A program made the position numbers and the translations under genes. Shown one piece after another: positions 3,209 to 61,308 of a DNA stretch of 64,000 nt (positions within the stretch are counted from its first letter, which is position 1; each line of letters begins with the position of its first letter). The notes under the pieces were generated by a model, which was given only the letters and a program-made list of their open reading frames with translations, was not told where the DNA came from and searched no databases. The DNA lies in the NCBI RefSeq assembly GCF_006345805.1, contig NC_043004.1, forward strand, positions 37,200,001 through 37,264,000, in the 5' to 3' direction. The stretch comes from Octopus sinensis. Lineage: Eukaryota.

Positions 3209-3210
3209 TA

Positions 3211-5722
3211 AATAATTTGTATACGTTTATATACATATATATAATTTGTATACGTTTATATACATATATATAATTTGTATACGTTTATATACATATATAT
3301 AATTTGTATACATATATATAATTTGTATACATATATATAATTTGTATATATTTGTGTACATATATATAATTTGTATATATTCGTATGCATATATATCATT
3401 TCTATACATTCGTATGCATATATATAATTTCTATACATTCGTATACGTATATATAATTTGTATACATTCGTATACGTATATATAATTTGTATACATTCGT
3501 ATACGTATATATAATTTGTATACATTCGTATACGTATATATAATTTGTATACATTCGTATACGTATATGTAATTTGTATACATTCGTATACGTATATGTA
3601 ATTTGTATACATTCGTATACGTATATATAATTTGTATACATTCGTATACGTATATATAATTTGTATACATTCGTATACGTATATATAATTTGTATACATT
3701 CGTATACGTATATATAATTTGTATACATTCGTATACGTATATATAATTTGTATACATTCGTATACGTATATATAATTTGTATACATTCGTATACGTATAT
3801 ATAATTTGTATACATTCGTATACGTATATATAATTTGTATACATTCGTATACGTATATATAATTTGTATACATTCATATATATAATTTGTATACATTCAT
3901 ATACATAATTTGTATACATTCATATACATAATTTGTATACATTCATATACATAATTTGTATACATTCATATACATAATTTGTATACATTCATATACATAA
4001 TTTGTATACATTCATATACATAATTTGTATACATTCGTATAAATAATTTGTATACATTCGTATAAATAATTTGTATACATTCGTATAAATAATTTGTATA
4101 CATTCGTATAAATAATTTGTATACATTCGTATAAATAATTTGTATACATTCGTATAAATAATTTGTATACATTCATATAAATAATTTGTATACATTCATA
4201 TCCATATAAATAATTTGTATACATTCATATCCATATAATAAAATTTGTATACATTCATATCCATATAAATAATTTGTATACATTCATATCCATATAAATA
4301 ATTTGTATACATTCATATCCATATAAATAATTTGTATACATTCATATCCATATAAATAATTTGTATACATTCATATCCATATAAATAATTTGTATACATT
4401 CATATCCATATAAATAACTTGTATACATTCATATCCATATAAATAATTTGTATACATTCATATCCATATAAATAATTTGTATACATTCATATCCATATAA
4501 ATAATTTGTATACATTCATATCCATATAAATAATTTGTATATATTCATATCCATATAAATAATTTGTATATATTCATATCCATATAAATAATTTGTATAT
4601 ATTCATATCCATATAAATAATTTGTATATATTCATATCCATATAAATAATTTGTATATATTCATATCCATATAAATAATTTGTATATATTCATATACATA
4701 TAAATAATTTGTATATATTCATATCCATATAAATAATTTGTATATATTCATATCCATATAAATAATTTGTATGTATTCATATCCATATAAATAATTTGTA
4801 TATATTCATATCCATATAAATAATTTGTATATATTCATATCCATATAAATAATTTGTATATATTCATATACATATAAATAATTTGTATATATTCATATAC
4901 ATATAAATAATTTGTATATATTCATATACATATAAATAATTTGTATATATTCATATACATATATATATAATTTGTATATATTCATATACATATATATAAT
5001 TTGTATACGCTTATATACATATATATAAATTGTATACGTTTATATACATATATATAAGTTGTATACATATATACATATATATAATTTGTATGCATATATA
5101 TAATTTGTATATATTTACATGCATTTATACGGTTTGTATATATTTACATGCATATATACGGTTTGTATATATTTACATACATATATGCAGTTTGTATATA
5201 TTTACATACATATATGCAGTTTGTATATATTTACATACATATATGCAGTTTGTATATATTTACATACATATATGCAGTTTGTATATATTTACATACATAT
5301 ATGCAGTTTGTATATATTTACATACATATATGCAGTTTGTATATATTTACATACCTATATGCAATTTGCATATATTTACATTCCTATATGCAATTTGCAT
5401 ATATTTACATACCTATATGCAATTTGCATGTATTTACATACCTATATACAATTTGCATGTATTTACATACCTATATACAATTTGCATGTATTTACATACC
5501 TATATACAATTTGCATGTATATACATACCTATATACAATTTGCATGTATTTACATACCTATATACAATTTGCATGTATTTACATACCTATATACAATTTG
5601 CATATATTTACATACCTATATACAATTTGCATATATTTACATACCTATCTACACTTTGCATATATTTACATACCTATATACAATTTGCATATATTTACAT
5701 ACGTATATACAATTTGCATATA
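3211..5722. repeat. AT-rich minisatellite with 29 and 23 bp units (TTTGTATACATTCGTATACGTATATATAA and variants); also 2090-2194
   Basis: Direct tandem units in successive blocks of variants. The ORFs here are artefacts of the repeat. Confidence 0.95.
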
Positions 5723-5915
5723 TACAATTGTCTATAAAGCATACAATGTAGAGAGAAAAAGAAGATTTGAACACCTGGAGGAAAGCACCATCGAAATGTG
5801 TCTTTGTGCGACTATGAAAGATATCCCCACAGAAGTAGAGGTAGGCTGGATTGTAGCCACACTTCTACATCAGAGGGAGGACAAAATACAATTGGTCGAA
5901 ATTGCAAGAGACGGG
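5723..5915 (+). pseudogene. Internally deleted fragment of a Tx1-like ORF1 related to the 11-20 kb elements
   Basis: TIVYKAYNVERKRRFEHLEESTIEMCL resembles TIIYRTQDTTTRKLSRIAIEDIEKCL. KDIPTEVEVGWIVATLLHQREDKIQLVEI resembles KVPPNIKTEMLVTAIIGAAKEEVEIGSI. Confidence 0.55.
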
Positions 5916-10629: not shown

Positions 10630-10827
10630 TATAAACAAAACAATGAAATACGAATATAAACATGAAAAATAAAAACCTAAATTGAAAGAGGCGATTAAAA
10701 TTTTTTCCTAACCTGCAGCCGTTTGTTGTACGAAGTATTCGAAATTCAGCCCTCCTTCCTCAGGGTTCCTTTCTCGAGGTAAAATCCAGCAGAAAGCAGT
10801 AAGGCACCACATGAAGAGTATTCAGTT

Positions 10828-12768
10828 GATTTTATTATTACCCACAAGGGGCGAACGTAGAGGGGGACAGTACAATCGGGGGAAAAAAATAAAAATAATG
10901 AATTATGAAAATATGTATAAATGTGGTGTAATGCTCCACCCGATCCCCGAAATCAGGCGGTTACATTTCGTCATTTTATAATGTTTTCAACAGTAACAAA
11001 TTCATTTTTCAGCATTTTACAATACATTTCAGTACATTTCAAAATATAATTTCAAAATACATTATCAATTACAGAAAAATTGTTTTCACAAATTCACATA
11101 TAAATCTTTCGCAATACATCTTTAAGGTTTCAAAATACATAACCAAAAGTCTTTCCAAATTTTCTCCTTTTCTTTTTTTTTTTTTTTTCCTTTAATTTTA
11201 AATTATCTCCATTACCTTTTTTAGGTCATTATAGTTTTCCATTTCTTTTGGGTACCTTAGTAGTCGGCACTTCATTTGTCTTGTTACATTCGTTCCAGCG
11301 GCTTTGATAAACGCCTCGGCGTTGTCTTCATGGATCAGTGCACCCGTTTCCTTCCACTCCGTGCCCATCCTGACCCATGAATATCCTTCCGTTTCGCTTA
11401 TAAGTTCTTCCATTTCGCCACAGTGTTTATACCAATGTACCAATGTTTATACCATTGTACCAATGTTCCGTAAAATTTGTATCTTCTATTTGACCCTATG
11501 TTTTCTTTGGTTTTCCTCTTCGGGCTTACTTCTTCTTTACTTCCCTCTCTCGGTTTTTCTCTTTCTCTCTTTTTGCTTTCCTTTTCTTTTTCCTTCTCTT
11601 GTCTTTTTGGTTCTTTGTCTGTCGTATGTTCTTTTCCTGTTTTTTCTTTTTCTTTTTGTGTAGTAGCCTTTCCTTTCTCTTGGTTCTGTTCCTTCTCTTG
11701 TTTTTTCCTGTTTTTTCACTTTCCTTTATTTTACTTTCTTTTTCTTTCTCTATTACCTGTGGCTTTTGTTCTTTTTCTATTAATTCCTTCTCTTTGCCTT
11801 CATTTTCCTTCTGTGTATTGTTATTTCCTTTTACCGTTGTTTCCTTTTCCTTGCTTTCTTTCTCCTTTAGAGTATTGTTCCCTTCTTCGGGTTCTTTTTC
11901 TTTCTCTTTTCTGTTTTCCTCTGCTCTTTCACACTCCGCCACAAATTCGTAAAGCGGACATTCTTTTTTAATATGACCTCTTGTCCCACATAGATAACAG
12001 TTGGGCTTCCTCCCCTCAACTATTACGCAGAGGGGTCTACCATCTTCTACTTCTATTTGGAAGGGAATTCGGTCTATATCTCTGTTTGTGGCTGTCAGCC
12101 ACATCTCTATTCCGAATCCCTTCCATTTCACTATGCTGGTCTCTTTTATCGATCCAATTTCTACACCTTCTTCTGCTGATCCTAGGATGGCTGTTACCAG
12201 CCATTCTGTTTTTAAATTTGGGGTTATGTTTGGGATTTTAACCCGCACCCCTCTTTTCCCCTTGTAGGTAGGCCACATGACGAAGTTTTCGCCTCTGAGT
12301 ACGGTGGTAGCTAGTGAGGCCGCAACTTCTTTTGTTGCGTACCTCACCTCCACCGTACCATATTTTCTGCCTCTGCATACAAAGGTAGCCTTTTTCATAA
12401 CGTCGTCCAGACATTTTTCTATGTCTTCTATCGCTATTCTCGATAGCTTTCTTGTGGTCGTGTCCTGTGTCCTATAGATTATAGTTTTGTCCTCTTTTCC
12501 CTCCTTTGCTTCAACAGGGGGGACCAGCTTCACTCTGTCATCCTCCCTTTCAATGAATTTCTCAAATTCCTCAAGCTGTTCTTTTTTAAAGAACACCTCT
12601 CTTACTGTCAGCGGCGTATCGCTTTTCATTGCGGCGACCCCCGCGTAAGTCTCCATGACTTGAGGGTCGGCGCACTTTCTACAAAAAGTTTCTAACGCGC
12701 AGCGGCAAATGCCTCGCGCGATTCAAATTTCAATTTCTATCTACAAAACTATCAATTACTTAACCGAC
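10828..12768 (-). mobile_element. ORF1-only non-autonomous Tx1/L1-clade retroelement, copy A
   Basis: Has a 5' UTR, a single ORF1, a 3' UTR and a tail shared with the adjacent LINE. No APE or RT. Flanked by the direct repeat GAGTATTCAGTT (10816-10827 and 12769-12780). Confidence 0.8.
11198..12656 (-). pseudogene. ORF1p (RRM-like region, CX2CX4HX4C knuckle, K/E-rich linker, C-terminal domain), frameshifted
   Basis: 376 aa ORF with CYLCGTRGHIKKEC. The C-terminal part (11198-11443) is separated by A-run frameshift(s) and a 20 bp tandem duplication at 11424-11463. Confidence 0.8.
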
Positions 12769-13024
12769 GAGTATTCAGTTGATTTTATTACTACCCACAA
12801 GGGGCGAACATAGAGGGGACAATACAATCTGATGTGGGGTCAGACATACGGATGGTTTTTACAAAAAATCGGATTTAAAAATATCATGAAATTACAAAAA
12901 TACACACAAAATCGAATGATGGAATAGACCGGAAGACATTACAGATGGAGTGGGTGCGGGTTTAGCTCGGACCCCACGAGCCCCGCCTCTCCACTGATAC
13001 TTTTGGTTGCGCTTGGTATTACAT

Positions 13025-16000
13025 TTATGTTGTATCTTTTACTCGCAACTTCCGTGCCACATCTTTCCATCGTTCTTCATACACTCTCCTAGTCAGGCAT
13101 ATTCTCTCCAGCCCTATCTTCCTTTTCAGGTGGAAGATGAAATAATTCATCAAACCAGGGCCAGAGATGAACTTGCCTGACTGTAAACCTTTCACTCTCG
13201 TCTTCCATATCACCTCTTTCGCAATTGCTACTACGACGAGAAAACGAAACTTACCTTCATTCACGAGAAAATCCGGTGGGTCAATTTTTGTAATCGACTC
13301 AGTCGACAGCTGTACTCTTCGTGTACCTGACAACAGCTGTTCGGCATAAACCCACACCTCAGACACGTCCGGACAATGAACAATAGCGTGCGGAACGGTT
13401 TCCCTATCCCGCCCGCATCTTGGACATATCGGACTGTCTCGGCCACCGTGCCTTGCGAGTTTATCCCGAACAGGTAGAGCTCCTCTGTAGCATTGCCATG
13501 CCAGAGACTTCTGGAAGTTGTCCAGTGTCCTCGGCTTGAACGTACGTCGGAACAGACTGGCCAGCTGATTATCGTCGAGACCTAGGGTTTCCCCCAAGGT
13601 ATCTTCACATTCCGCCTCTACCAACCCTCTATAGAAGAATGTGGTGGAACCCCCACCGCAGGCGTTGCCCGAGCGACGGAATAGCAGGAGAGCCTTGCGA
13701 CACTCCGTGTACCAAGTACCGAGTTTCGATCTACGATCCAGCCAGGTTTCCCGTCCACCGAAACTAGTGAACTTGGAAACATCAGTTTTGCTAACGGAGA
13801 CCACACCCGTTCACCATCCAGGTAGAGCCACAGATGTCTTAACCTCAGCGCATGTCTGCGCATCATCAGCCAAGGCATCCCTAGCCCACCCTTTAACGGT
13901 TGTTGACAGCAAGTAGAGCGTTTCACAAGTGGTTTCCTACCCTTCCACAAGAAGTAGAAGAGCTGTCTTTCCAACTTGGTCAACCACGAATCGGGGCAAG
14001 GAACGACGGAAAGGCGGTAGGTGATAACCGATGCGATAAACACATTGGCCACCTCCGCCCTCCCTTTCAAGGATAGCCACCGCCAAGACCAGGTCTTGGC
14101 TACTGCAGCCACCTTGCTCGTTCCACCTCGCCCCAATTCTTCTCTATTTGGAGGTCTGGACCGAACCAGACCCCTAGCAGTTTAATCGGACCCTCCGTCC
14201 AACGTCCCACGACGCTGTCAGGAGGCATCGACTTGCCTCTCCAGGTGCCGAGTTGCAAGCCGACTGACTTTTCGCGATTAACTTTTGCTCCTGTCACCGT
14301 CTCGTAAACCTCTATGGCCTTGCCTACTTTACATAGGTGGTCCATTTCGGTTACGATGATGGTGATGTCATCCGCGTACGCTGACACTGATTTTCCATTA
14401 CCCGGCTGTCTCGGGATGCCGCTCAGTTTTCGCAGTAATGGCTCTAGAGCATCACGTACAAAAGCGGGGAGAGCGGACACCCTTGACGAACCGAGCGTTT
14501 GATTTTGAACGGCTTCGACAAGAAGCCGTTCACCCGAACTACCGAGTCGATGTTATCATACATTTGGATAATCCACCTGAGGAAGCCAAGGCTCAGCCCG
14601 AACTGTGCCAGGCAGATACCAGTAACGATGGTCGACCCTATCAAAGGCTTTAGATTGGTCTAAATGGACCAGTACCCCACCCTTGCCAGAATCATTATTA
14701 AACCCCTCTATAGTGTACCGCATTAGATGGAGATTATCCTGAATGGATCTGCCCGGAACGGCACATGTCTGTGCCTCTCCGATCAGACCATCCGCGACAC
14801 GCGCCAATCTTTTCGATAACACTTTGGCCAAAATCTTCAACTCTGTGTTTAGCAGAGTGATGGGCCTGAAATTATCAATGCACTCCCCCTTGCTCGGGTC
14901 CTTTCTGACGAGAGTCACTACTCCCCGGCGCACAGATCTGGGTATAAGCCCGTTCTGCTGCCAGTTCGCATAGACCTCCGCCAGTAGGTGCCCGAACAAG
15001 TCTGGCATACTCTTATATAACTCATAGGGTAGACCATCCAAACCCGGCGCCTTGCCTGCGCCGCAGTCCGCCATTGCCTCAAACACCTCCTCAGGCGTGA
15101 TTGGCCCTTCACAGCCCTCCGCATCTCGCCCCGATAAGCGCGGCAGCCCGTCGAGTAGGTCCGTAAAGGCCCTCCTCCTATCCAGTACGCCGCACTCACC
15201 GAAAATCTGAGCGAAGTGCTCCTGAAAGGCCTCACACATCTCCTCGGGTTCATTTATCAACTCACCTTGTTGGTTCGTCAAAGATCGAATCGTGGCACCG
15301 TTACCATGCTGAGCTTCCACCACTCGGGCCTCTCACGGCATTGATTCCTTCACATCCCATATGGCGGATTCTAGCCCTGACAATGCAGCCCATGTGTTTG
15401 GCCTCGAGGTGCTGGTTTAACACCAGTCTCTTGGACGCCACCTGAGCCGCAGAGCCAGTTTTCATGGCTTCCTCTAATTCCTTAACTAGAGTATTATCCC
15501 CTCTAGCCTCTCTAGCCACTACTCCTATGCTATATCTAATAGACTCAAACTTGATGGCTCGTTTGAGGGCGTACCACCATTTGTTATTAATGATGGCACC
15601 AGACAGCGCCCTCTGAATTATGGTCCTAATCCGGTCTTTGTACTCCTTAATCGCCAAAAGGGACGTATTAAGTTTCCAGTAACCGGATCCTCTATTTCTA
15701 ACCTTATCTATGTCAAGCTTACAAGTGACCATTTTATGATCACTGTAGCTGATCGGGTAAAACTGTGGACACTTAGCTATTTTACTGTCTACTTTTCTAA
15801 TTAGAATTCTATCTATATATGACCTGGAAGATCCGTCGCTGTTTGACCATGTCCACAATGAGCGTTCGAAATTCCAGCCTATACGGATCTGCTAGCTCAA
15901 AGCGGCTTAGCAGTTCCATGAAGCCACTGTTACCTCTCCTATCTGGACACGAGCCAACACAATCTACATCCGCTTTGCAAATGTGTTAAAGTCTCCTAGC

Positions 16001-16414
16001 ACCACTAATGAATGCGAAGTACCGAGAAATTTTTCTAGATCACGAAAATAATCACTTTGCCCTTTTTTACTGTTGGGTACGTAAATTGCAACCAGTCTGA
16101 TAACTTTACCATTACTGAACGTCAAATCCATGACGACCACCCTACCTTCTGGATCTGCAAAAATTAACTTTTTCTCAGAACCCGGTTTCTTTTTAATAGG
16201 ACAACACCCCTCTCCCGCCTGTAGGACTGCCAGGAGAGAAAAAACTCTCGTAGCCGTCAAACAGCGGGAGAAGACCTCTTGGCCCCTCTAACCAGGTTTC
16301 TGTAGCAACAATAACATCTAAATTACGCGACCTGATATCATGCAGGAAGCGACCTTGCTTCCAGCCTGCTCCCAGGCCGCGCACATTCAAACAACCAACA
16401 TAAATGTAATCCAT
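13025..16414 (-). pseudogene. ORF2p: AP endonuclease, reverse transcriptase and C-terminal Cys domain, with multiple frameshifts
   Basis: CLNVRGL, VATET, VLGDFN, SYIDRIL and SDHK (APE); GYWKLN; KAPGLDG, FRPITLLN, DQSKAFDRVDH, SVRQGCPLSP and AYADD (RT); CPRCG...HAIVHC. Confidence 0.92.
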
Positions 16415-16422
16415 TACTTACT

Positions 16423-17753
16423 TTATATCAGTGGTTCGGTTTTTTCGTTTTCTTCTTTTTTTGTCTCTTTTTCTGGGCCTCGTGGGGGAGTCTGACGCAG
16501 GCCCTCGAATATATATGGAGATGTTATATCCATTCTGAGCGGGCCTACGTCATGGAAAAATTCGGACTTTATCCGTCCGTAATCCTTCCGGCCTATTCTG
16601 TACAAAACATAGTCGTTTTTCTTCCCTATTTTTTCTACTTTGGCCATCGCTGCCAACACATTTCCTAGTCTATTGTTCGTGGCCTTAACGGCCATAAATG
16701 AGTTCAATGATTCCCTTTTTTTTTTTGGTTTACTTTGGGAGGGGTGGTTTCAGTTTTTCTTTTTTTCCTGGTGATTTTTGACCACCCCTCCTCCTTTTTC
16801 GTTTCCTCGCTCTTTTTTTTCCTCTTCCGTTGGTTCCGCTGCCTCTGTCACCTCCACACCTTCAGTCGTCCCTCCTGGGCCGACCAGCGCTGTTTCTGAC
16901 GACACGGCTTCTTCTTTTCCACTTGGCTGAGCTGCTTCCTGCGGTTTGGGTTGGGGCTGGCATTCTGCCCTTACATGCCCTTTCTTACCGCAGCCGAAGC
17001 ACCTCGGCTTTCTGCCCTCTACGAAGACTGTGACTCTTTCATCTTCGCTTATCTTTAGAGTCTCTGGGATCTCTTCCAGGGTTTGTACTTCTGCTTGTAT
17101 GGCTATTATATTTTTTGCCCTTTCCAGAATTCTTCTTCTTCTACGGTGGCCTGGAGGATGTTTATTTTTTCCTCCAGGCCTACCATAACTGCTGCCACCA
17201 TGACTTCGGCATCCGCTTCTGGCGGAATGTTATTCATGTGATCTTGGAAGTTCTCTTGCCTTTATACAGGGGTAGGAGAACAATATCCTCCGCTTTTATG
17301 GGTTCCATGGATAGCTTCTTCGCTACCTCCTCTGACGTGAATCTCACCTCCACTGTGCCGTATTTCTTCCCTCGATTGATATATGTTATTTTATCCATAA
17401 TCGGCTTTAAGCAGTTTTCGATCTTTTTCTCCTCTATTTTGTATTGCTCTGCTTGTTATACTGAATGTCTTATGATTATTCTCCTATTCGAAATTCCTCC
17501 GTATTTGGGCGTTTGAAGCCACGGTTACTTCCGTGCCCTCTTTTGACACACAGTCTGCATGTTTTCCCAGGTTGTCCACGTTAATTTTTTTAATTTTCTT
17601 CCCAGCTACTTCAGAAAATTTTCTCGCTGGTGCTGGAATGTCTTTTTCCTTTGGCGACCCCGCCTCTTTTTTCTTTGGCGACACCGCCTCTTTTTTCTTT
17701 GGCGACACCGCCGGTGATCCTGCATCACTTGAATTCGAGATGGGGGATTCCAT
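16423..17753 (-). pseudogene. ORF1p of the Tx1-like LINE, frameshifted
   Basis: RGKKYGTVEVRF, LPLYKGKR and VEGRKPRCFGCGKKGHVRAEC are homologous to the ORF1s of copies A and C. It has N-terminal SPKK repeats and stops 8 nt before the ORF2 ATG. Confidence 0.85.
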
Positions 17754-18028
17754 CTCTGATATCTGGCTTTAACAAGCCCTTGGCACAACCAAGATAATGA
17801 TAGCTCTTTCCCCCACGGAGGGGGGAAACACCAACACGGAGCCCTCGCACGAAGGCCGACTTCAACAGTTTTACAACAACACAGAAAGACAGCTAGACAC
17901 ACAGTAGATCACAACGGAGAAAATATACACAAAAAAAATACTAACTCACTATACACTATGACGAGCTGGTGAAAGTTCAGTTTTTGAGTATCTATGAATA
18001 TGAATCAGTGTCATTATATCACATCCTT

Positions 18029-20036
18029 TGTTTTATTATTACCCACTAGGGGCTACATAGATAGGACAATACAATCGGGAAAATGAATAATGAATTATGA
18101 AATTTGTACAATGTGGTGCAATGCCCACTCGATCCCCGAAATCGAGCGGTTACATTTCGTCAATTAATTTTGTTCGTCAACAATATTTTCAAATAAAACA
18201 TTTTATGCATTTTCAACATACATTTCAAAAAGTTTTACAAAAGTTCAACATTTCTTTTTTTTTTTTTTTTTTTTTTTTTTCCGATTTTAAAGTTCTTTTT
18301 ATCATTTCCAAATTAAGTTTTCACAATACCTTTTCTTTTATATATACTCCATTATGTCTACCAACTCTGGGTAAAATTCCATTGTTCGAGGCCACCTTGT
18401 AAGTCGGCATTTCATATGTTTTGACACGTTCTCGCCAGCTGCCTCGATGAACGCCTCGGCGTCTTTCTCGTGGACGAGTGCACCTGTTTCTTTCCATTCG
18501 GTGCCCATCCTGACCCACGTATATCCGTTTGTTACGCTTATTAAATCTTCCATCTCCTCACAGTGCCTGTGATGGATTAACGTTCCATAGTATTTGAATT
18601 TTCTATTCGTATCTACGTTTTCTCTAGTTTTTCTCTTAGGACTTACTTCCTCTTTTTTCTCCTCCCTCGGTTTCTCTCTTTCTCTCTTTTTGCTTTCTCT
18701 TCTTTCTTTTTCCTTCTCTTGTCTTTTTGGCTCTTTGTCTGCCGTCTCTCTACCCTGTGCCTTAATTCCATTCTGTTGTTTCTTTTCCTTTTTGCATACC
18801 ATTTTTCCTTTCTCTTGGTTCTGTTCCTTCTCTTGTCTTTTGTTCTTTGTCTGCCGTCTCTCTACCCTGTGTCTTAAGTTCCTTTCCTGTTGTTTCTTTT
18901 CCTTTCTCTCGGTTCTGTTCCTTCTCTTGTTCTTTTCCTGCTTTTTCTCTTCCCTTTAATGTACTTTCCTTTTCTTTCTCTTTCTTCTGCCTTGGCTCCT
19001 TCTCCACTACTTCTGCACCCTGTGAATTTTGCTCCTTTTCTACTATCTTCTTCCTTTGTTTTCATTTTCCTTCAGTGCGCTGTTACTTCCCTTCTCTTGT
19101 TGTTTCTCCGTTATTTCCTTTTCCTTGTTTTCGCTGTTCTTTCCTTCGTGTTCGTTTTCCTTCTCTCCACTTTGTGTCTCTTTTTGCTCCGCTGTGAATT
19201 CATACAGCGGACATTCCTTTTTTATGTGCCCTCTTGATCCGCACAGGTAGCAATTCGGTTTTCTGCCTTCCACTATTACACTAATTGTCTTCTCGTTTTC
19301 TATTTCTATTTGGAAGGGAAATCTTTCGATGTCTTCCATTTTGGCCATTAGCCACAACTCTACTCCGTATCCCTTCCAATTTACAACGTTCGACTCCTTA
19401 ATTGACCCTATTTCTACTTCCTCTTTTGCTGCCCCAATAATGGCTGTTACCAGCATTTCTGTTTTAATATTTGGGGGCACCTTTGGGACTCTTACCCGTA
19501 CCCCTCGTCTTCCTTTATACGTCGGCCACATGGTGAAATTTTCCGCTTTCAGGACAGTGGAAGCCAATGAGGCCGCCACTTCCTTTGTTGCGCATCTCAC
19601 CTCCACCGTACCATATTTCTTTCCTCTGTCTACAAAAGTCGCTTTTTTCATAATGTCCCCCAGACATTTCTCTATTTCTTCAATCGTCACTCTCACCAGT
19701 TTTCTCGTGTTTCTATCTTGCGTTCTATACGTTATCGTCTTGTTAATTTTTTCTTCTATTGTTTCCACAGGCGGGACCAGCTTCACGCTGTCACCCTCCC
19801 TTTTGACGAACTTCTCGTATTCCTTCAATTGTTCTTTTCTAAAGAACACTTCTCTTATTCTAAGAGACTCGTCACTTTTTGTTGTGGCGACCCCCGCGTA
19901 AGTCTCCATGACTTGAGGGTCGACACACCTTCTATAAAAGGTTCAAACACGTAGCGGCATACGCCTCGCGCGATTCAATTTTTAACAGTCTTTTTTCAAT
20001 TATCACATACAGAATAACTCACAACACATTATATGG
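18029..20036 (-). mobile_element. ORF1-only non-autonomous Tx1/L1-clade retroelement, copy C
   Basis: Colinear with copy A from 5' UTR to tail. Perfect 16 bp TSD ATTATATCACATCCTT at 18013-18028 and 20037-20052. Confidence 0.88.
18338..19909 (-). pseudogene. ORF1p of copy C, frameshifted in the low-complexity linker
   Basis: 288 aa N-terminal ORF with CYLCGSRGHIKKEC. The C-terminal ORF 18338-18802 contains WVRMGTEWKETGALVHE, and the linker has ~113 bp internal repeats. Confidence 0.8.
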
Positions 20037-20220
20037 ATTATATCACATCCTTGTATCAGATTTTTTTCAAGATTTTTTTCACGTTTAAATAAGAAATTAA
20101 AATCATTTAGTTCATCATGCAATTTTGGGAATATTCCATTTTTTATTAATATATACTACAATAACAAAGGAATTATTTAAGATTTTAGATTTATGCATAA
20201 GTATTCTTATGGTTCCAAAA

Positions 20221-20500
20221 CACATGGTTCTCAGTTCAGTCCCACTGTGTGGTAACTTGGCATGTGTCTTCTACTGTAGCCTGAGACCAACCAAAGCCTT
20301 GTCAGTGGATTTTGTAGACAGAAACTGAAAGAAATCAATCGTATATATATCTATGTATGTAAGTCTGTGTGTGTGTCTTTGTGTTTCTCCCTCATCACTG
20401 CTTCACAACTGGTGTTCGTTTATTTACATCCCCATAACATACTGGTTTCACAAGAAGAAACTGATAGAATAAGTACCAGGCTTATCAAAATTTTAAAAAG
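20221..20500 (+). mobile_element. tRNA-derived SINE family 2, degenerate; part of a ~330 bp local tandem duplication (second unit 20639-20708 plus 23494-23760)
   Basis: Matches the reverse complement of the 42953-43325 copy. Confidence 0.75.
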
Positions 20501-25549: not shown

Positions 25550-25712
25550 CGGGGGGACAAACACAAACACACACACAGTTTCCGTCTACCAAATTCACTC
25601 ACAAGGCTTTGGTTGGCCTGAGGCTCTAGTAGAAGACCAAGGCGTCGCGTAATGGGGCTGAACCCAGAACCATGTAGTTGGTAAGCAGGCTACTTACCAC
25701 ACAGCCACTCAT
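25550..25712 (-). mobile_element. SINE family 2 head (tRNA-like); a second partial copy at 25872-26008
   Basis: GAGTGGCTGTGTGGTAAG (A box-like) and GGTTCAGCCCC (B box-like). Confidence 0.8.
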
Positions 25713-26032
25713 GCATATGTATGTGTGTGTGTGTGAGTGTGTGGGTGTGTGTGTGTGTGTGTGTGTTTGTGTGTGTCTGTGTGTAGTTTGACAAGTGTCA
25801 ATGAACGAAACTCTCACCCCCCCCGAGTCACTCTGTTGCTTCTGCTAAATATTGATAAACACATATATGACAAGCTTTTTCAGATTCCGTCAACCAAATC
25901 TACTCACAAGGGTTTAGTCGACCCAGGGCTATAGTAGAAACACCCGCTCAAAGTGCCACGCAGCTGGACTGAACCCGGAACAGCTTACAACACAGTCACG
26001 CCTGCTTCTATTCACATATATACATGATATAT

Positions 26033-26256
26033 ATTTCTTTTGCTACCCACAAGGGGCTAAACATAGAGGGGACAAACAAGGACAGACAAACGGATTAAGT
26101 CGATTACATCGACCCAGTCGAAACTGGTACTTTATTTATCGACCCCGAGAGGATGAAAGGCAAAGTCGACCTCGGCGGAATTTGAACTCAGAACGTAGAC
26201 GAAATACTGCTAAGCATTTCGCCCGGCGTGCTAACGCTTCTGCCAGCTCGCCGCCT
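26033..26256 (-). mobile_element. tRNA-derived SINE family 1 with a Tx1-like 3' tail
   Basis: A box-like TGGCAGAAGCGTTAG and B box GTTCAAATTCC. The central GCCTTTCATCCTCTCGGGGTCGATAAAT is reminiscent of the MetaSINE domain. The tail is TGTCCCCTCTATGTTTAGCCCCTTGTGGGTA. Confidence 0.88.
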
Positions 26257-26400
26257 CTTGCATATAAATCTATGTGCGTATATAGACACAGTTATACATA
26301 CACATACCTAGTCATGGATGGCTACACACACTAACACACACGTACACATACACACGTAAGTAGTCACACAAGTGTACACACAACCAAACACATACGCACG

Positions 26401-33915: not shown

Positions 33916-34135
33916 GGTAGGAATTGTGTGGGTAGCACAATTATTATAGGCACTATTTTTACTGTTCTCATGCTCCAAATTCTTCCTATTTTAAATTTTA
34001 ATGGATTTTATTTTTTTTCGTCCTCTTTCTTTACGATCCTGGAATCAAACGAGCATGAGTGTCTTCAACTATAGCCTCGAACCGACCAAAGGCTCGTGAG
34101 TGAATTTGGTAGACGGAAACTGAAAGAAGCCAGTC

Positions 34136-34169
<34 letters not shown>

Positions 34170-34185
34170 TGTGTGTGTGTGTGTG

Positions 34186-42952: not shown

Positions 42953-43325
42953 ACTCTTTTACTTGTTTCAGTCATTTGACTGCGACCATGCTGGAGCACC
43001 GCCTTTAGTCGAGCAAATCGACCCCGGGACATATTCTTTGTAAGCCCAGTACTTATTCTATCGGTCTCTTTTGCCGAACCGCTAGGTAACGGGGACGTAA
43101 ACACACCAGCATCGGTTGTCAAGCAATGCTAGAGGGACAAACACAGACACACAAACATATGCATACACATACATATATATATATATACATATATACGACA
43201 GGCTTCTTTCAGTTTCCGTCTACCAAATCCACTCACAAGGCATTGGTCGGCCCGAGGCTATAGCAGAAGACACTTGCCCAAGATGCCACGCAGTGGGACT
43301 GAACCCAGAACCATGTGGTTGGTAG
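42953..43325 (-). mobile_element. SINE family 2, near full length
   Basis: B box-like GGTTCAGTCCC, an internal (TA/TG)n tract, and the tail GGCGGTGCTCCAGCATGGTCGCAGTCAAATGACTGAAACAAGTAAAAG. Confidence 0.9.
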
Positions 43326-43574
43326 GCAATAATATGTGTATACAAAAGAAAATGGATTAAATTTCTAGGTGAATACTTTAAAAGCTCTATGTAGGGATCA
43401 AACTTAACTGAATTGTCCAGTGAAAGCATTTGCAATCCACTTAGACCGTAAAATTACTTTCAACCGCCAGGCCTATTCGTAAATCCGAAGTTTAATCACC
43501 GAATAAATTTACTCTAAAATTCAGCTAACGCACGTTTTGAATAGATTGGCAAATTTCAAAATTTTGTGGTGCAC

Positions 43575-48166: not shown

Positions 48167-50021
48167 AGTATTATACTATAATCATTTTAGAAGTATAGCT
48201 CTGTATATTTTCACTTTAAAACTTGCCATAAAATCTTGTCATTCATTTATGACCAGATTCATAATACGACTTTCTTCTATACTTACAATACGGCCCTCTA
48301 GTTTCAAAGTTTTATGTTCCATGCTACTCATACTACCTTTTATTAATGCCTTTCTTTTATTTTATCCAATCCGTTAATCTTGAATCACACTTTCTTCTAA
48401 CTTTTCCTTGAATCTCCATTCTGTATACCGTTGTGGGTATAATCAAAATACATTTAACGGAATAATTTCAGTGTAAATAGCAGATATCGTACAGAGCCAG
48501 GACATCAAAAATTCGTTTCTTGAAGACACTAGTTTAAATTTAGTTTAACAATGGCCAGGTTTTTTTATTATTATTGTGTCTGTAATTGATGTTGAAAGTC
48601 CACTTAGATTTGTTCGAACAAACTACGATTGACAACAGAACGATCACAAATCAACAGTTGTTACATACTTTAAATAGTTGGTTTATGGCTAGTATGTGAC
48701 CAAGCTTTGCATACACTTGGTTTAGACACGATGTTTGTCCGCTACAATGCGTGTTACCATGTAACAAATGACGTCTGTTTCAATACACAGTCGCTACAGC
48801 AGGGGACAAAACAAGGTTAATTTAGTGAGTGTTTTGTAATTTAAATTATTAGGGATTCATTAGAACTGATTACCAAAAGACTCGCGTGATAACAAGGAAC
48901 AGATTTATCAGAAAGATTATCTCACTAATTTTATCTCTTGGTTTTATACCTAAAATATTCGGTGACTGCATCTTGTTAAAATAACCTTCGATTGGTACTT
49001 ATTACTTCACTTCTGTAACTAAATCGTTTAGTATTCGGCGTCTACCTTTGTGTACACTTTGGCAATGAGTCATAATTAAGTTGTAATCTCATATCTCTTT
49101 GCTTACGTTTTCTCCATTGCTTATTTTTTATATTTTCTGTCGTCTCTTCTTTTTAAACTTAGGTCTCTCCCCTCTCAAATTCTTCTTTGCTTTGGTGTAA
49201 TGTTTCTCTGAATATTTCACTATTGATTTGCCTTTTTAGCTGCAATTCATTAAAATCAAATTGTCAACATTTATTTTATTAAGAATTTCTTTTCAGCGGC
49301 ATTATTTTATTTCACTTTAGTGTATCTGATATTTGTTTTATTAGAGTGCCGCTCCATCATTCCGCACAATTACAACATCTAGATCGACACTGATGCTTCT
49401 GTGTCGCCTTTTATTACTTATTTTCAATACATCACATCAAATAAAGATTTTTCGTCCAAATGGGTTGTGTCAAGTCATTTCAGATTTGATCATTTATGGC
49501 ACAGCTGTCTGTCTCACTAAAAATATATACAGGCGGTAATGAATATGTAATGAATGTTTTCGCTTTGCTTGATGTTGTTATTTTTTGTTTTGCTTTTTTT
49601 GTTTTTGTATTGAGAGACCAATGTGCTAACAGCATTTACTATATATTTGAAGAAAACTGTGATTTAGATATGGCTACTTATTTTGTAAAAAAGCGATTGT
49701 GTGTGTGTGTGTGTGTGTGTGAATATAAATACTGTCTGTATGATACACTGAAATCGAAACATATACCAACAGGTATAAATTTATGATGAACAGTTTAGTA
49801 TTCTGCATAATACAAGGCTGTTGAGTAATTAAATACTCAAAATAGAGATGAAAAGCTTCATATTTTTGTACGATTCTTGCCTGTATTAGGAGAGATCACT
49901 TTTATTTTATAAATAACAAATTTCTATCAGCGATCTTACATCGCACATTCGGTGTACAATATAATAAATAACGTCCTCGCAAATCGTTCTACTTAAGATA
50001 CCCAATACTTGTAATTACACT

Positions 50022-50647
50022 GTTTCTTTATTAGCCACAAGGGCCCAAACATAGAGGGGGACAAACATGGACAGACAGGACACCACAGAGGGGACGATAC
50101 ATGGAACGAATATGATGAGATGATTATACAATAATGGGGTTATGAATGGCTGCATGCGCCCCTCATCACATGCATTACCATTAATCTTTTTAAACTGTCC
50201 GTTTTTATCATATATTTAACTAACAATTAATTATCGTCTACCATTACAATTATTTGAACCGTTATACGTTCTCTAAAAATGTTCTTCTATCTTCCGATAT
50301 TATTAAATATAACATAAAACACTTACTTTTTTTTCCTACTTTTTCTTTTTCTTTTCTTCTTTCCTGTCGCTTTGACATTTATTTTGAGTGATGTTTCATT
50401 AGTGGTTCGATATCTATTAAATCCACCACTGGTGGCAATTCTTTGAATTCCACCGTTCTTCCTGATGTGTCGATGTTATCTCCACACATTTCTTGTAGTC
50501 TTTTATAACTTTCCTTTTCAATTACTATCGCCTTCATGTCCTCTGCATATATGTTTGCTGGTATCTTTACTCTTACTATTTGGTTGAACTTGAGTATTTT
50601 CTTCTGTTTCAATATTCTTCGGGTATGTTACGTAATACCGTTTCCTT
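50022..50647 (-). mobile_element. 5'-truncated retroelement with the Tx1-like tail and an ORF1-type C-terminal domain, copy D
   Basis: Perfect 20 bp TSD CCAATACTTGTAATTACACT (50002-50021 and 50648-50667). The tail is GTCCCCCTCTATGTTTGGGCCCTTGTGGCTAATAAAG and the ORF end reads AIVIEKESYKRLQEMCGDNI. Confidence 0.8.
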
Positions 50648-50769: not shown

Positions 50770-51845
50770 ATTCTACTTCCACACAACACCTCTCCTTTTG
50801 AGATTGGCTTTGTCCTTCTATTTATTCATTTATTTATTCTTTTACTTTTATCATTATATCAGGTCTGTTGCGCTTACATTTTCTTGTGGTCTTCATTGGG
50901 ACATTCCACCAGTATTCCTTTTTATTATGAGTGGCTACGGCTTCTACCATATTGTGGCTTCTTATTTCTTTGTCCTTGGGATTTTTTATTATAGATTTCC
51001 TAGCTACAACATCATGTCTCATCGGTAGATAAATAGCGTGATGACATTTCTGGACAACTGCTTATGTGGGTGATATCTTTGGTGTTAGTTCCACAAAGTC
51101 TGCATTGGTTGTCACATTTTATGCCTTTTCCTGCATCTCTATCCCTTTTGTGCATCAGGTATTTGGTTAATATTTCCTGTTCCTGGATTGCAAACGCATA
51201 CCCTTCAAAGTGGGAGGTAATAATCCGGTTATTTGTCTATGATAAACTGCTTTGATTATTGATGTTACTATCACCACAGAGCTTTCTACTAACATGTCTA
51301 TGCATAGTATTCTGCTCATATAGGCACATCTGATAATATATTGGGGTAGAGTCGTGCGACTTCTTTGGGCATGTATCCTAGGTTATCAGACAAAGAGTGT
51401 TGCTTAAGGAGCTGCCTTCCAAGTCTTATGATGTTATCAGCCTCACGTATGCAAACTTGATCAAGGGATGCGCTTCGACACTTGGTGGTCAAAAGATGTT
51501 GCCGAAGGGATATGATGCGACATTCAAAGGCATTTTGGATCGATGCTCAACCTCTACCGCCTTCTTTTCGTTTTAGGTAGAGGCGGTCTACGTCACTGGT
51601 TATGTGGATATTATGTGTTGTTGTTAGTATTTTTCGGGTTTTCACATCAATGGCTCGGATCTCATCAAGCGTCCAATCAAACAGCTCAAATGTTGGTGTG
51701 AGTACTGGCACTGGAGGCACATTTTGGGCCACTGCTTTATTGAATGCAGAGTTCTGAGGTTCATTTTTTTTTATTAGGCTGTAATATTCTTTAGTGAAAC
51801 GTGCTTCGTTACAGGTGCCATTGTAAGATATCTTTTCATCCACTT
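50770..51845 (-). mobile_element. R4/Dong-like (RLE-encoding) non-LTR retrotransposon fragment
   Basis: VDRLYLKRKEGGRG, FEGYAFAIQEQEI, CRLCG...HISSC zinc knuckle, RHD and RNRPDI. Confidence 0.85.
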
Positions 51846-52401
51846 ATTATTTGGTGCCGATTGTAGCTGCGCTTGCGCGGCGGATTTGAAAAGCTATAAT
51901 GTATATAGATGAAACGTGTGTCTTTAGTGTTGCACGGAGGGCAAATTATTTTATTTGTACATTGATGCTGAAACTCGAGTACAAGTGGTAACTATTGAAA
52001 TGTTTTTATTTTTCATTCCCTTTGAAATTACTCTTATTCGTGGTTTGGGCTTTTAACTGCCCTTTCCAGCATGCAAGGTGTCCTGTTAAAGTCACTTCTT
52101 TTGGGTATAAAAACGTACACTAATTTATATAACGTCAGGTAAGCTTGCGTACACACACACATAAATCCCTGGTGAATATTTTCTCTGCACCCCTAAATTG
52201 TTTACACTTTAGTTCTTCATAAGGCAAATTATACATGATAAAACTCTTTCTTTTAAACACATCTTGACAACGTTTTCGAATAGAAAATAAGAACATAACT
52301 ATAGAATTGAAACAAAGAAAGAAATGAAATTTATACATAAAAGTAAATAGAAATAAAAATATCGCCAGAAAGCCTGTCTTTTTAAACATATACAATAGAA
52401 C

Positions 52402-52466
52402 TATATATATATATATAAAAATATATATATATATATATATTACATATATATAATATATATAATTTC

Positions 52467-52504
<38 letters not shown>

Positions 52505-52516
52505 ATATAGTATATA

Positions 52517-52548
<32 letters not shown>

Positions 52549-52654
52549 TACATATATATATATATTATATATTTATTATATTATATATATATATAATATT
52601 ACATATATATAGATATATATATATTTAGATATATATATATATATATATATTTAC

Positions 52655-52692
<38 letters not shown>

Positions 52693-52763
52693 ATATATAT
52701 ATATTTACATATATATATATATATATATATTTGATATATTAATATATATATATATATATTTAC

Positions 52764-52826
<63 letters not shown>

Positions 52827-52949
52827 ATATATATCTATTATATTTACATATATATATATATATATTATATTATATATATATATAATATATATATATATTT
52901 ATATTATATATAATATATTATATATAATTTACATATATTATATATTATA

Positions 52950-52996
<47 letters not shown>

Positions 52997-53029
52997 AATT
53001 ATATATATATATTTACAATATATATATTA

Positions 53030-53068
<39 letters not shown>

Positions 53069-53149
53069 CATATATATATAATATATATATTTATATATAT
53101 ATTATATATATATATTTACATATATATATATATATAATATTTAATATTC

Positions 53150-53204
<55 letters not shown>

Positions 53205-53605
53205 ATATTTATATATAATAATATATATATTTATATATATATATATATATCTAATTATTATATATATATATTATTATATATTTATATATTATATATATAT
53301 ATTATATTTATATATATATATTATATATATTATTTATATATATATATATATATCATATTATATATAATATATATAATATATATATATATATTTATATATA
53401 TATATATATTTAATATTTATATATAATAATATATATTATATATAATATATTTATATATTTATATTATATATATTATATATATATATTATTATAATATATT
53501 TATATATATATATAATATATATATATTATTTATATATATGATATTTATATATTTATATATATTATATTATATATATATATATTTATATATATAATTATAT
53601 ATATT

Positions 53606-53642
<37 letters not shown>

Positions 53643-53669
53643 ATTATATATTTATATATATATATATTT

Positions 53670-53700
<31 letters not shown>

Positions 53701-53712
53701 ATATATAATATA

Positions 53713-53744
<32 letters not shown>

Positions 53745-53772
53745 ATCTATTATATATATTTTATATATATAG

Positions 53773-53805
<33 letters not shown>

Positions 53806-53852
53806 ATATAATATATATATATATAATATATATTTATATATATATATATTTT

Positions 53853-53919
<67 letters not shown>

Positions 53920-54016
53920 ATATAATATATATATTTAATATATATATATAATATTATATATATTATATTATTTATATATAATATATATATTATATATATA
54001 TATATTTATATATATA

Positions 54017-54054
<38 letters not shown>

Positions 54055-54116
54055 ATTTATATATATATTATATATATATTATATATATATAATATATATA
54101 TATCTTTATATATATA

Positions 54117-54150
<34 letters not shown>

Positions 54151-54233
54151 ATATATATATTTTTATATAATATATATATAATATATATATTATATATATA
54201 TATTATATATATATATACTATATATATATATAA

Positions 54234-54273
<40 letters not shown>

Positions 54274-54385
54274 ATATATATATATATTATATATATAATA
54301 TAATATATATATATATATATATATATTTATCTATATATATATATATATATATATATATTCTAATATATATATATATATATATAGT

Positions 54386-54418
<33 letters not shown>

Positions 54419-54576
54419 TATATATATATATATATATATATATATCTTTATATATATATATATATATATAATATATATATTTATATATATATATATATAT
54501 ATTTATATTATATAATATATATATTTTATATATATATATAATATACTTATATTTAATATATATATATTATATATAG

Positions 54577-54654
<78 letters not shown>

Positions 54655-54747
54655 ATATATATATTTATATATCTATTTATATATATTATTATATCTTTAT
54701 ATATATATATATATATATATTATTATATCTATATTTATATATATATT

Positions 54748-54817
<70 letters not shown>

Positions 54818-54882
54818 TAATACTATAATTATATATATATATATATATATTTTATATATAATTATATATATATTTATATATC

Positions 54883-54921
<39 letters not shown>

Positions 54922-55187
54922 ATACATATATTATATAATATATTATATATATATTTATATATATATATATATATATATTTTATATCTATATATAGATATA
55001 TATATATATTTATATATATATATATATATCTATATATTATATATCTATTATATATATCCTTATATATATAATCTATATCTATTTATATATATATAATATA
55101 TATATATTATTATATATAATATATATATATACTATATATATTTTATATATATATATATAATTATATTTTTATAATATATAATATATA

Positions 55188-55274
<87 letters not shown>

Positions 55275-55277
55275 TTT

Positions 55278-55313
<36 letters not shown>

Positions 55314-55459
55314 ATTATATATATATATTTATATATATATATATATCTACTATATTATATTTATATATATATATATATAATATATATTTTATATATATAT
55401 ATATATCTAATATATTATATATATACTATATATATTTTATATATATCGCTATATATATT

Positions 55460-55492
<33 letters not shown>

Positions 55493-55580
55493 CTATATAT
55501 AATATATATATTATATTTATATATATATATATATATTTATATATATAATATATATATTTATATATATATATTATATTATT

Positions 55581-55633
<53 letters not shown>

Positions 55634-55666
55634 ATATATCTATCTATATTTATATATATCTATATA

Positions 55667-55713
<47 letters not shown>

Positions 55714-55747
55714 ATATATATATATATTATATATTATATATATATAT
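52402..55747. repeat. ~3.3 kb degenerate (TA)n microsatellite
   Basis: Almost exclusively A/T alternation punctuated by TTTA/TTTACA interruptions. Confidence 0.98.
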
Positions 55748-57129
55748 TCTGTTGTATATGATATATATATACTATATTGTATTATATGGCAACTTAAGTG
55801 AAAATTATAAAAAAAAACAATTGAAAACAAATAGTTTATTGTTATCTTAGTTTCTTCGTTCATCTGAATTATTCATTGAGAAAATTGTCTACTAGGTTGC
55901 ATTTCTTATTCTGAGCAATATACCATAGTTTACACTATTTCTGTTTTCTCTGTGATTGTCTTTGTGTGTGTTTTTTTTTTTGTTTTGTTTTGTCTGTGTG
56001 TATAAGTGTGTGTTTATGAGTTTGTGCATATGCGTGTTATACACTAAAATGAAACCAGAATTGTAAACAAATGTCAACAAGAGATACCTTCATTTATCTA
56101 TAGCTATGCACATCAGTGATACAATATACTTACCGTTTAAGTATTGTGTGTGTTTAGTGGGGATATGTATGCGTGTGCTTATGTGTGTGCATGTTCCTGT
56201 TATTTTATTTTTTACAGTTGTGAGCCAATAAACGTGAACAAATTTTCACTGATAAAAGTGCTAAATCTGTGAAGTAGTTTGAAATTTATTAAATAGAAAT
56301 AATTGACTGCAACTTCAAGTTTTTCCTTCCTTCTTCAAACAGTAAGCTAGATTACAGGTATTTATATATTTCTCTAAATGATACGACGTGGGAAAGGAAA
56401 CCTATTTTTAGAGAAGGGTCAGTAGCTAGAAAGTTTAACCTCCTTTCATACAGTAGCAATTTGTAAGTAGTTTTTGGTTTTGTTGTGTCTTTTTGTGTTT
56501 TTTTTTTCGAGTTAACGTGATTCTGAAAGTATTTCAGATGTTCTGTAAGTAGCAAATAAAGTAATTTATAAAGAGTGGATAGGTTCCAACTTGATCTAGA
56601 ACGGATTGTATCCTCTATGGTAGCTAACTGACTGGGACACACCAAGTGAATAGGTTGTGTAGTTTTCATATGAAGGAATCGCATTGACGTTAAGATGAAC
56701 TAAAAACAGAACAAGAAGGAAGCTAGCTCTGATCTGGAGGACGTTTCAAGAGATGTTTAAACGCGTGTAAAGAGGTCTCAAGTGTGGGAACGTGCTTGAG
56801 TGCGCTTGAACTTGCCTAAATCTTCTTATATGTGGGCGAAGATTGTTTCCAACACATGACTTGGCTTCGGAAGCTTAATTTATGCATGGGAGATTAGTCT
56901 TTTTACATTATAAACGAAATACATTAAATATAACAACTCCTAAACTAATTTAAATATATAGATGTCAAAAGTAATTATATATAAGACTAAAAATAAATAC
57001 TTTCATTCATACATAGTGCCACACATACACAATGCAAACAAATATATCGAAATGGTTTTTCATAAATACGAAAATCAAGAAATAGGACACCAAACATAAA
57101 CATGTAGAGTATTATATTTATATTTATAA

Positions 57130-60180: not shown

Positions 60181-60758
60181 CGAACTTCAAAGCAGCTGAT
60201 GAAAAACGAACTCTTGAAAAATTTCCATATTGTTCTGCTTGCTAACAAGAAAGAAAATGCGCTGTCCATTGTCTCAACTTGCACTTTTCCTATGACAGTC
60301 CTTGTATGTGACACTCGGGTGTCCGACAATAGATAGACGCTGTTTTCAGTCATACGGAATTTGAGGGCGGATTCCTCTTTGGATTCCATTGTGAAGATTA
60401 CTGGTGCCTGAGTGGTTCTTACCTGCAAATTTTTCAAATCTGTCTTTTCTACAACTGCCAATTTGGAGAAATCCTCTTCATATACGTAGAATTCATTCTG
60501 CCGTCTCAATCTCGGTTGCAGTTTCCATTGTGGCTGCGTTTGCATGTCAACAATAAGCATAAAGGCCATCCTAGACACAGAAGTGACAATCTTGTGCTAT
60601 GAGAGACGGTGAAGTATTGGGAATTTAGGTTCACTAGGATAAGCCAAGCGCACAGGGTGCAGTGTTTCAACATACACAATTTTGTTGGAAACGTCTAAGC
60701 ACATAAATTTTGGCTAGAAACCACGACAATTAATACTCGAATGAACGAAGCTTATTTC

Positions 60759-60987
60759 TATTTCTTTACTACCCACAAGAGAGGACTAACACAGAGAGGA
60801 CAAACAAGGACAGACAAACGGATTAAGTCGATTATATCGACCCCAATGCGTAACAGGTACTTATTTAATCGACCCCGAAAGGATAAAAGGCAAAGTCGAC
60901 CTCGGCGGAATTTGAACTCAGAACGTAGACAAAATACTGCTAAGCATTTCGCCCGGCGTGCTAATGTTTCTGCCAGCTCGCCACCTT
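60759..60987 (-). mobile_element. tRNA-derived SINE family 1 with an 18 bp TSD
   Basis: Paralog of 26033-26256. TSD ATGAACGAAGCTTATTTC at 60741-60758 and 60988-61005. Confidence 0.92.
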
Positions 60988-61308
60988 ATGAACGAAGCTT
61001 ATTTCATTACGAAGAAAGAAGTTGAAATTGAGCCTTAGAAGACAGCTGCATGTGAAGAGATAACAAAGGTATATGTCCCTCATTTCCGATATACAGTTGT
61101 TAAAATCACGTCGGTGCGGCTGTCACCACATACATACATGCATTACATGGAAAAATGCGAGCAAGAGAAATAATATTCTTACGATTATAAACCTGGAAAA
61201 GTTCAGAACAAGTTATTACATCTGGTAAAGTACAAAACAAGAAAATTTTTACTAATATATTGCAATCAAGGATAAAATTTCAAATAAAATTTTTAGATTT
61301 AGAAAATA

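Follow-up and report, generated by a model that had tools for sequence, protein, structure and literature searches.

Background

Stringent pairs of LINEs and SINEs are known from the L2 clade, where UnaL2 of the eel and ZfL2-1 and ZfL2-2 of the zebrafish have been described and binding by ORF2 has been tested (PMC4176376). In the L1 clade, the only tail-sharing pairs given in the available text of two further papers come from plants and algae, namely LINE1-1_ZM with ZmSINE2 and ZmSINE3 in maize and sorghum, and L1-1_CR with SINEX-3 in Chlamydomonas (PMC3472496, PMC3747384); in those texts, the open proposal that L1-clade enzymes were ancestrally stringent and later relaxed to poly(A) rested on such cases. 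For Tx1 elements, the one link to a SINE that we found in the literature searched is that between crocodilian SINEU and Tx1-Mar, drawn from shared targets; SINEU is poly(A)-tailed, and SINEU-1 is described there as lacking 3' similarity to any LINE (PMC4494074).

Two further kinds of system are relevant. Non-autonomous LINEs consisting of ORF1 only are represented by HAL1, HeT-A and Ag-Sponge, of the L1, Jockey and CR1 clades (PMC5786205, PMC5753468). In SART1Bm and R1Bm, annealing of the RNA 3' end to the nicked target has been proposed, and R1Bm requires downstream target sequence (PMC7265360). The octopus repeat literature that we searched names L1-Tx1 elements and SINEs as classes only, and the tail reported here is not described in the full-text literature searched, a scope beyond which lie Repbase and Dfam, older subscription papers and supplements.

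A 3' tail common to six copies in one window

The window, by which we mean the whole 64,000-nucleotide stretch of Octopus sinensis DNA analysed, had been read from its sequence alone as carrying one 3' motif at the ends of four LINE-related copies (A to D) and of SINE copies. We found the motif at all six places, always on the minus strand. A degenerate 19-letter form matches the window five times, against none in 100 shuffles and a chance expectation of 0; the SINE variant at 60759 is too altered to match this form. The features are these:

10829..10877, minus strand: shared 3' tail of ORF1-only element A; hairpin at 10840-10852
10829..12768, minus strand: element A, ORF1-only with no ORF2; zinc-knuckle ORF1 at 11201-12656, frameshifted
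12769-12781 and 10816-10828: 13-bp target-site duplication (TSD) flanking element A
12782..12830, minus strand: shared 3' tail of LINE B; hairpin at 12793-12805
12782..17962, minus strand: element B, full-length Tx1-like LINE; ORF1 at 16426-17753, ORF2 at 13028-16417, frameshift-broken
18029..18075, minus strand: shared 3' tail of ORF1-only element C; hairpin at 18041-18053, loop CUAGU
18029..20036, minus strand: element C, ORF1-only; ORF1 at 18341-19909 with one in-frame stop
20037-20052 and 18013-18028: 16-bp TSD flanking element C
50022..50647, minus strand: element D, 5'-truncated, with a 20-bp TSD; hairpin at 50033-50045 with a flipped pair; lies within an LTR-like repeat
26033..26260, minus strand: tRNA-type SINE plus tail; head with A-box-like and B-box-like motifs; hairpin at 26045-26057; no readable TSD
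60759..60987, minus strand: second SINE copy, hairpin mutated; 18-bp TSD at 60988-61005 and 60741-60758
10640..10828, minus strand: downstream part of a multicopy target zone hit by C, B and A; a Mariner-like element comes after it
17963-18028 and about 20037-20200: other parts of the same target zone

The first three LINE-related copies form a head-to-tail stack within one target zone, C being followed by B and B by A. The ORF2 of B has APE endonuclease, RT and zf-RVT domains, and a damaged copy of its 5' TSD is present at 17963-17968. Element D is a truncated member of a separate ORF1-only family, since in the longest D copy a whole zinc-knuckle ORF1 stands directly before the tail.

Wherever both repeats can be read, in four of the six copies (A, C, D and the SINE at 60759), the TSD encloses the tail, and the tail is therefore part of the elements and not of their insertion target. 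The absence of poly(A) from these ends, also asserted in the sequence-only reading, holds in the genomic copies examined: within the first 20 bases of flank, no A run is longer than 4 in any of the 115. That reading had further held that the terminal hairpin covaries in the window. The hairpins do read as it gave them, GCCC-CUUGU-GGGU in A, B and the SINE at 26033 and GGCC-CUUGU-GGCU in D (C has the loop CUAGU), but only a single flipped pair separates them within the window.

Three other features of the window were noted in passing. By eye, 50800-51900 (minus strand), just upstream of D's host repeat, is the decayed 3' part of another LINE-like ORF2; 3209-5750 and 52400-56000 are very AT-rich tracts of tandem and inverted repeats (GC 5-20%); and a second SINE-like family, with a CCUUGUG motif and a different 3' end, occupies 20218-20489, 25576-25981, 34058-34185 and 43037-43328.

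Owners of the tail across the genome

The window lies in a genome of 2.72 billion bases, from which we took the 30 best-matching loci per class. Among these, the tail was recovered at 30/30 A-type, 28/30 LINE-B, 28/30 D and 29/30 SINE loci. The LINE B family has many intact ORF2 copies in the genome, and its subfamilies at 70-94% have the loops CUUGU or CUAGU. More distant protein queries revealed a second autonomous lineage, E, with an ORF2 62-64% identical to that of B and the hairpin (A)GCC-CUUGU-GGC(C), in which 29 of 30 loci are tailed and all 29 tails are followed by ATT repeats. A third, F (ORF2 about 57-60% identical to B and 73-75% to E; hairpin AGCC-CUGUGU-GGCU), has the tail at 27 of 30 loci and TATC/TGTC repeats after it in 26 of those 27; of the other three loci, one (L363) is interrupted by an insertion and two (L345 and L360) have no hairpin.

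Further ORF1-only families also own the tail: A2, G (with loops CUAGU, CUGGU and CUCGU) and D2, which reads UGGC-C-NNN-GU-GCCA. A sister SINE tail, S3 (AGGC-CUUGU-GCCU), has weak homology to the others, with local scores of 14-20. Across 11 families (55 pairs) the tail window is 72% identical, compared with 43-49% in four 45-base windows upstream of it. The tail is a conserved 3' end of 45-50 bases, owned by no fewer than three autonomous Tx1-like lineages, by a number of ORF1-only families and by a tRNA-type SINE. An Argonauta protein used as a query led back to family E, and a metagenome scan for the 3' ends of relatives confirmed none.

The autonomous elements are likely to belong to Tx1, a placement suggested by their domains and targeting and not fixed by phylogeny. 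ORF1 has a CCHC knuckle (above the Pfam threshold in A and C, visible but below threshold in B), ORF2 has Pfam matches for the APE endonuclease, RT and a C-terminal zinc motif, and the target preference is of Tx1 type, given the repeats that follow E and F and the two zones or arrays that hold 14 of 28 B copies. The nearest named ORF2 relative is the Argonauta protein, at 64%, and among proteins named as Tx1 the nearest, at 38%, is the 'Transposon TX1' of a coral; the match to human L1 has a score of 130 bits. In an RT tree drawn without an L1 outgroup, the lineage sits on a long branch apart from coral and turtle proteins. Many further ORF2 relatives, about 50% identical in the RT region (P0004-P0080), were seen on ENA metagenome contigs of up to 1.1 Mb.

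The predicted terminal hairpin

When family majority states were computed from copies with at least two pairs, copies with fewer being dropped, stem pairs 2-4 were Watson-Crick in 7/7 family groups. Pair 4 is C-G throughout, and so is pair 3 apart from a flip to G-C in D2 and S3. At pair 2, C-G is the state of the B lineage and the SINE, and G-C that of the groups D, E, F, D2 and S3. Pair 1 varies between G-U, A-U and U-A or is unpaired (E), and loops vary between families.

In an alignment of 17 rows with 5-base loops, which omits 10 of the 27 representatives (eight rows with 6-base loops, A2, and B70b, which breaks a pair), 98.5% of cells pair compared with at most 50% in slid controls, the covariation score exceeds all 500 shuffles, and RNAalifold returns the same four pairs. 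The number of two-sided pairs on these rows is 2, a count reached by 82 of 500 shuffles, and the independent changes in the stem amount to about 2-4 events only. On the full 27-row alignment, in which 5- and 6-base loops are out of register, RNAalifold finds 0 pairs. Of the covariation that the earlier reading looked for in larger alignments, what is seen is two pairs that flip on both sides between families; the 27 rows together give none.

Nor is the hairpin stabler than shuffled sequence, either in five window tails (z -0.66 to +0.33) or in the 27 representatives (z -1.9 to +0.9), of which B97, B135 and D are predicted to prefer other folds. A longer stem is predicted to be possible in many families, extending the hairpin through AAUAAAGA bases. 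We regard a terminal stem-loop as plausible and not as established, because the independent events are few, there is no stability signal and the full alignment yields 0 pairs. Part of the conservation of the tail may reflect a polyadenylation signal: AAUAAA lies within most LINE and ORF1-only tails, and the commonest SINE form reads AGUAAA.

A second, longer hairpin with a GGGG apex is predicted 110-200 bases upstream of the tail. The B lineage has it, as do A, C, A2, G and D, and four window copies give z of -2.8 to -1.0; the SINE, E and F show no evident counterpart. Its positions in the window are:

10930..10967, minus strand: second, longer predicted 3' UTR hairpin of A, with GGGG apex
18120-18156 (C), 50145-50182 (D) and 12942-12996 (B): its counterparts in the other elements

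Insertion sites and arrays

The first target zone of B is a 100-base stretch of a multicopy composite that adjoins a Mariner-like element, and the second is a Helitron-like repeat; empty target zones do not carry the tail motif. Rfam and ARAGORN found no RNA family in the window or at eight target loci, so the targets are not known small-RNA genes. When flanks within 100 bases of the tail were scored for B's zones or arrays, these held 26/30 A-type, 14/28 B, 0/28 D and 0/29 SINE copies, a contrast that is biased in that the zones were defined from A and B loci, the A and B queries included a few flank bases and some zone copies were possibly co-amplified. The remaining 14 of 28 B copies are dispersed. 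An LTR-like repeat holds 8 of the 28 D copies.

Arrays mix units of B, A, A2, C and G, with one locus-specific linker repeated after each unit. Repeated insertion at a single site, regenerating the TSD each time, would produce such mixed head-to-tail arrays. With their autonomous partner they resemble those of HeT-A and TART. The sequence-only reading had proposed comparing TSDs and targets across classes: TSD lengths overlap, at 10-18 for the SINE (14 found at 30 loci), 13-23 for D (16 at 30) and about 11-25 for B, A and C, and of the copies scored, most of the A type and none of D or the SINE lie in the target zones of B.

Several observations concern the sites themselves. Empty copies of the composite, comprising a SINE piece, a unique stretch and the Mariner-like element (L144, L145, L147, L148, L151, L158 and L165 at about 1460-1500 in element orientation; window 20037-20200 and 17963-18028), are about 97% identical and differ at one junction by short indels, a pattern that repeated cutting and repair of the site would produce. 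The Helitron-like target (L122:7490-7960, L123, L129, L131, L136) has a terminal hairpin with CTAG and an old ORF1 fragment, and two insertion points about 330 bases apart. The 5' ends of some LINE B copies (L264 at about 855, L009, L121:2280-2330) carry short tags that match other target sites and resemble a stack of traces left by previous insertions. D and D2 recur near the end of an LTR-like repeat, after which come a primer-binding-like motif and a reading frame for DUF7083 (L242:2385-2940, L245, L109, L110, L116; window 49850-50021), and A-type or LINE copies lie in reverse orientation inside D-like ORF1 elements at L234, L237, L229 and L241.

Which enzyme may serve which client

It is most likely that the ORF2 of LINE B mobilises the ORF1-only elements A, A2 and C. 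We pair A and C with LINE B because their tail versions, target zones and mixed arrays match: tails are 84-98% identical, and the three main tail versions of B recur in 12, 3 and 1 of 23 A2 copies. In ORF1, however, A, C and A2 show just 35-37% identity with LINE B and fall on separate branches, which rejects a recent internal deletion of B as the origin of A and C, an ancient one being possible. These elements would have refreshed their tails from LINE B by template switching or conversion, long after their ORF1 had diverged. There are at least four deep ORF1 lineages, 28-39% identical to each other, and A, C, D and D2 are HAL1-like in being ORF1-only, bounded by TSDs and LINE-like at the end.

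The sequence-only reading went further, in that one reverse transcriptase, which would be that of LINE B, was to mobilise all three classes of client through the shared tail. Its pairing of A and C with B agrees with the tails, targets and arrays, but at least three autonomous lineages carry the tail and are candidates, and we consider a single enzyme for every class unlikely. The SINE has the same stem as B and over its last 43 bases matches B97, at 86% identity, better than any other LINE sampled; TSD lengths overlap among the classes, and the dispersed copies indicate that B can insert outside its zones. Against this, no D or SINE copy was found in B's zones, where A-type copies abound (the zones being defined from A and B), and D has the stem state of E and F, ends in the same last bases as F and has 8 of its 28 copies in an LTR-like repeat; the extension of the one enzyme to D and the SINE is not supported as it stands. 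The SINE tail also aligns better with D (score 69 over 55 bases) than with B (60 over 47).

Searches for dedicated partners gave no candidates. An ORF2-bearing partner of D was found at 0/20 extended loci, a D ORF1 search returned ORF1-only elements alone, and 0/12 D2 loci had one. A pattern for non-SINE tails at the tandem site of the SINE gave 107 matches, of which the 30 fetched were all SINEs, with no LINE among them. The SINE and D are likely to use a B-lineage enzyme or an unsampled sister of it, not necessarily the same one, and one enzyme probably does not serve all owners of the tail.

The SINE, with 2620 genomic candidates, shows box-like motifs and TSDs, and has no tRNA match by ARAGORN or Rfam. 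In some copies (L033, L034, L036, L039, L046, L053, L058) a single head is joined to 2-4 tandem body-plus-tail units, each about 184 bases long, and several of these copies lie within one TSD; other copies carry a second unit with an S3 tail, and the tandem units are without heads. Self-nesting with an intact outer head was seen in 0/71 full tailed SINEs.

What the tail may do

A stringent-type 3' signal in this animal Tx1-like lineage is likely, a reading that rests on the shared tail, its position inside the TSDs, the missing poly(A), the two-sided stem changes and the lineage-specific targets. The predicted short stem-loop would be bound by ORF2 before reverse transcription, which would start a few bases downstream without poly(A). 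We think it reasonably probable, on these comparisons, that ORF2 binds the stem-loop, begins copying a few bases past it and would copy any RNA with a compatible tail.

The tail could instead be a 3'-end processing signal, with AAUAAA and an upstream U/GU-rich and hairpin element fixing the ends of transcripts; the enzyme would then be relaxed and primed by microhomology, and sharing would reflect ancestry and template switching in place of recognition by ORF2. The AAUAAA of most LINE and ORF1-only tails, the thermodynamic weakness of the hairpin and the frequent match of TSD starts to the first bases after the tail are all in keeping with this. Yet none of the 115 copies has kept poly(A), a Pol III-type SINE would gain nothing from a polyadenylation signal (and mostly reads AGUAAA), and the flips in the stem preserve pairing, so that the combination appears decidedly improbable. 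That the motif is an independent repeat fragment serving as insertion target, as the sequence-only reading had allowed if TSDs were to exclude it, or a product of chance, is scarcely credible: in arrays the stretch duplicated between neighbours does include the tail (65 bases, 92%, A against B ends), but the TSDs of single insertions start 0-3 bases after the tail's A run with no tail upstream of the 5' TSD, which refutes a target, and the motif is absent from empty zones and expected 0 times by chance.

Dispersed B copies are followed by the usual flank word of their own subfamily, CAAC.. in 4 of 5 and CACT.. in 5 of 5; SINE TSDs often begin like the SINE's next unit, and in D copies a few extra bases are often fixed. 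Just after the YAPN motif, which aligns with that of human L1, the two B subfamilies also differ in their endonucleases. Annealing of read-through RNA to the nick fits these observations, and a target preference coded in the protein is likewise compatible. We suggest, tentatively and as something rather less probable than not, a two-part 3' code in which a portable stem-loop would license copying and the read-through bases of the donor site would steer the next insertion. Were this so, targeting would be inherited partly through RNA and arrays would be self-reinforcing, and ancient ORF1-only parasites and SINEs would persist by swapping in the current version of the tail.

Comparison with known systems

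[quoted passage not shown] Like HAL1, HeT-A and Ag-Sponge, A and C have ORF1 only and would borrow ORF2, but the octopus elements are Tx1-like, fall into at least four deep ORF1 lineages and form interstitial arrays. Tx1-Mar offers a parallel in that Tx1 LINEs there also prefer regions of another transposon and different families appear from their targets to serve different clients; the octopus link, in contrast to that of SINEU, is a shared tail with predicted structure.

As in the UnaL2 and ZfL2 pairs, LINE and SINE have a short 3' stem-loop in common, here a predicted one, and dependence on poly(A) is not expected. The octopus elements differ in belonging to the L1/Tx1 clade and in having ORF1-only clients as well, and recognition by ORF2 is here a prediction from sequence.

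The octopus lineage would make the proposal of ancestral stringency testable: many of its ORF2 copies are intact, its stems vary in nature, it shows three target preferences and it has clients of several kinds, so that tails, enzymes and targets could be swapped within one assay. It would also indicate the enzyme lineage behind an abundant octopus SINE and would provide small retroelements with a preference for certain sites, for which a tag of 50 bases on the cargo would suffice. The L1 pairs of maize and Chlamydomonas likewise have a conserved 3' end of 45-50 bases and partner SINEs, and their compensated stem resembles the one predicted here. The known L1-clade pairs in the literature searched are plant or algal; the tail-sharing lineage described here is Tx1-like, animal, target-selective and without poly(A).
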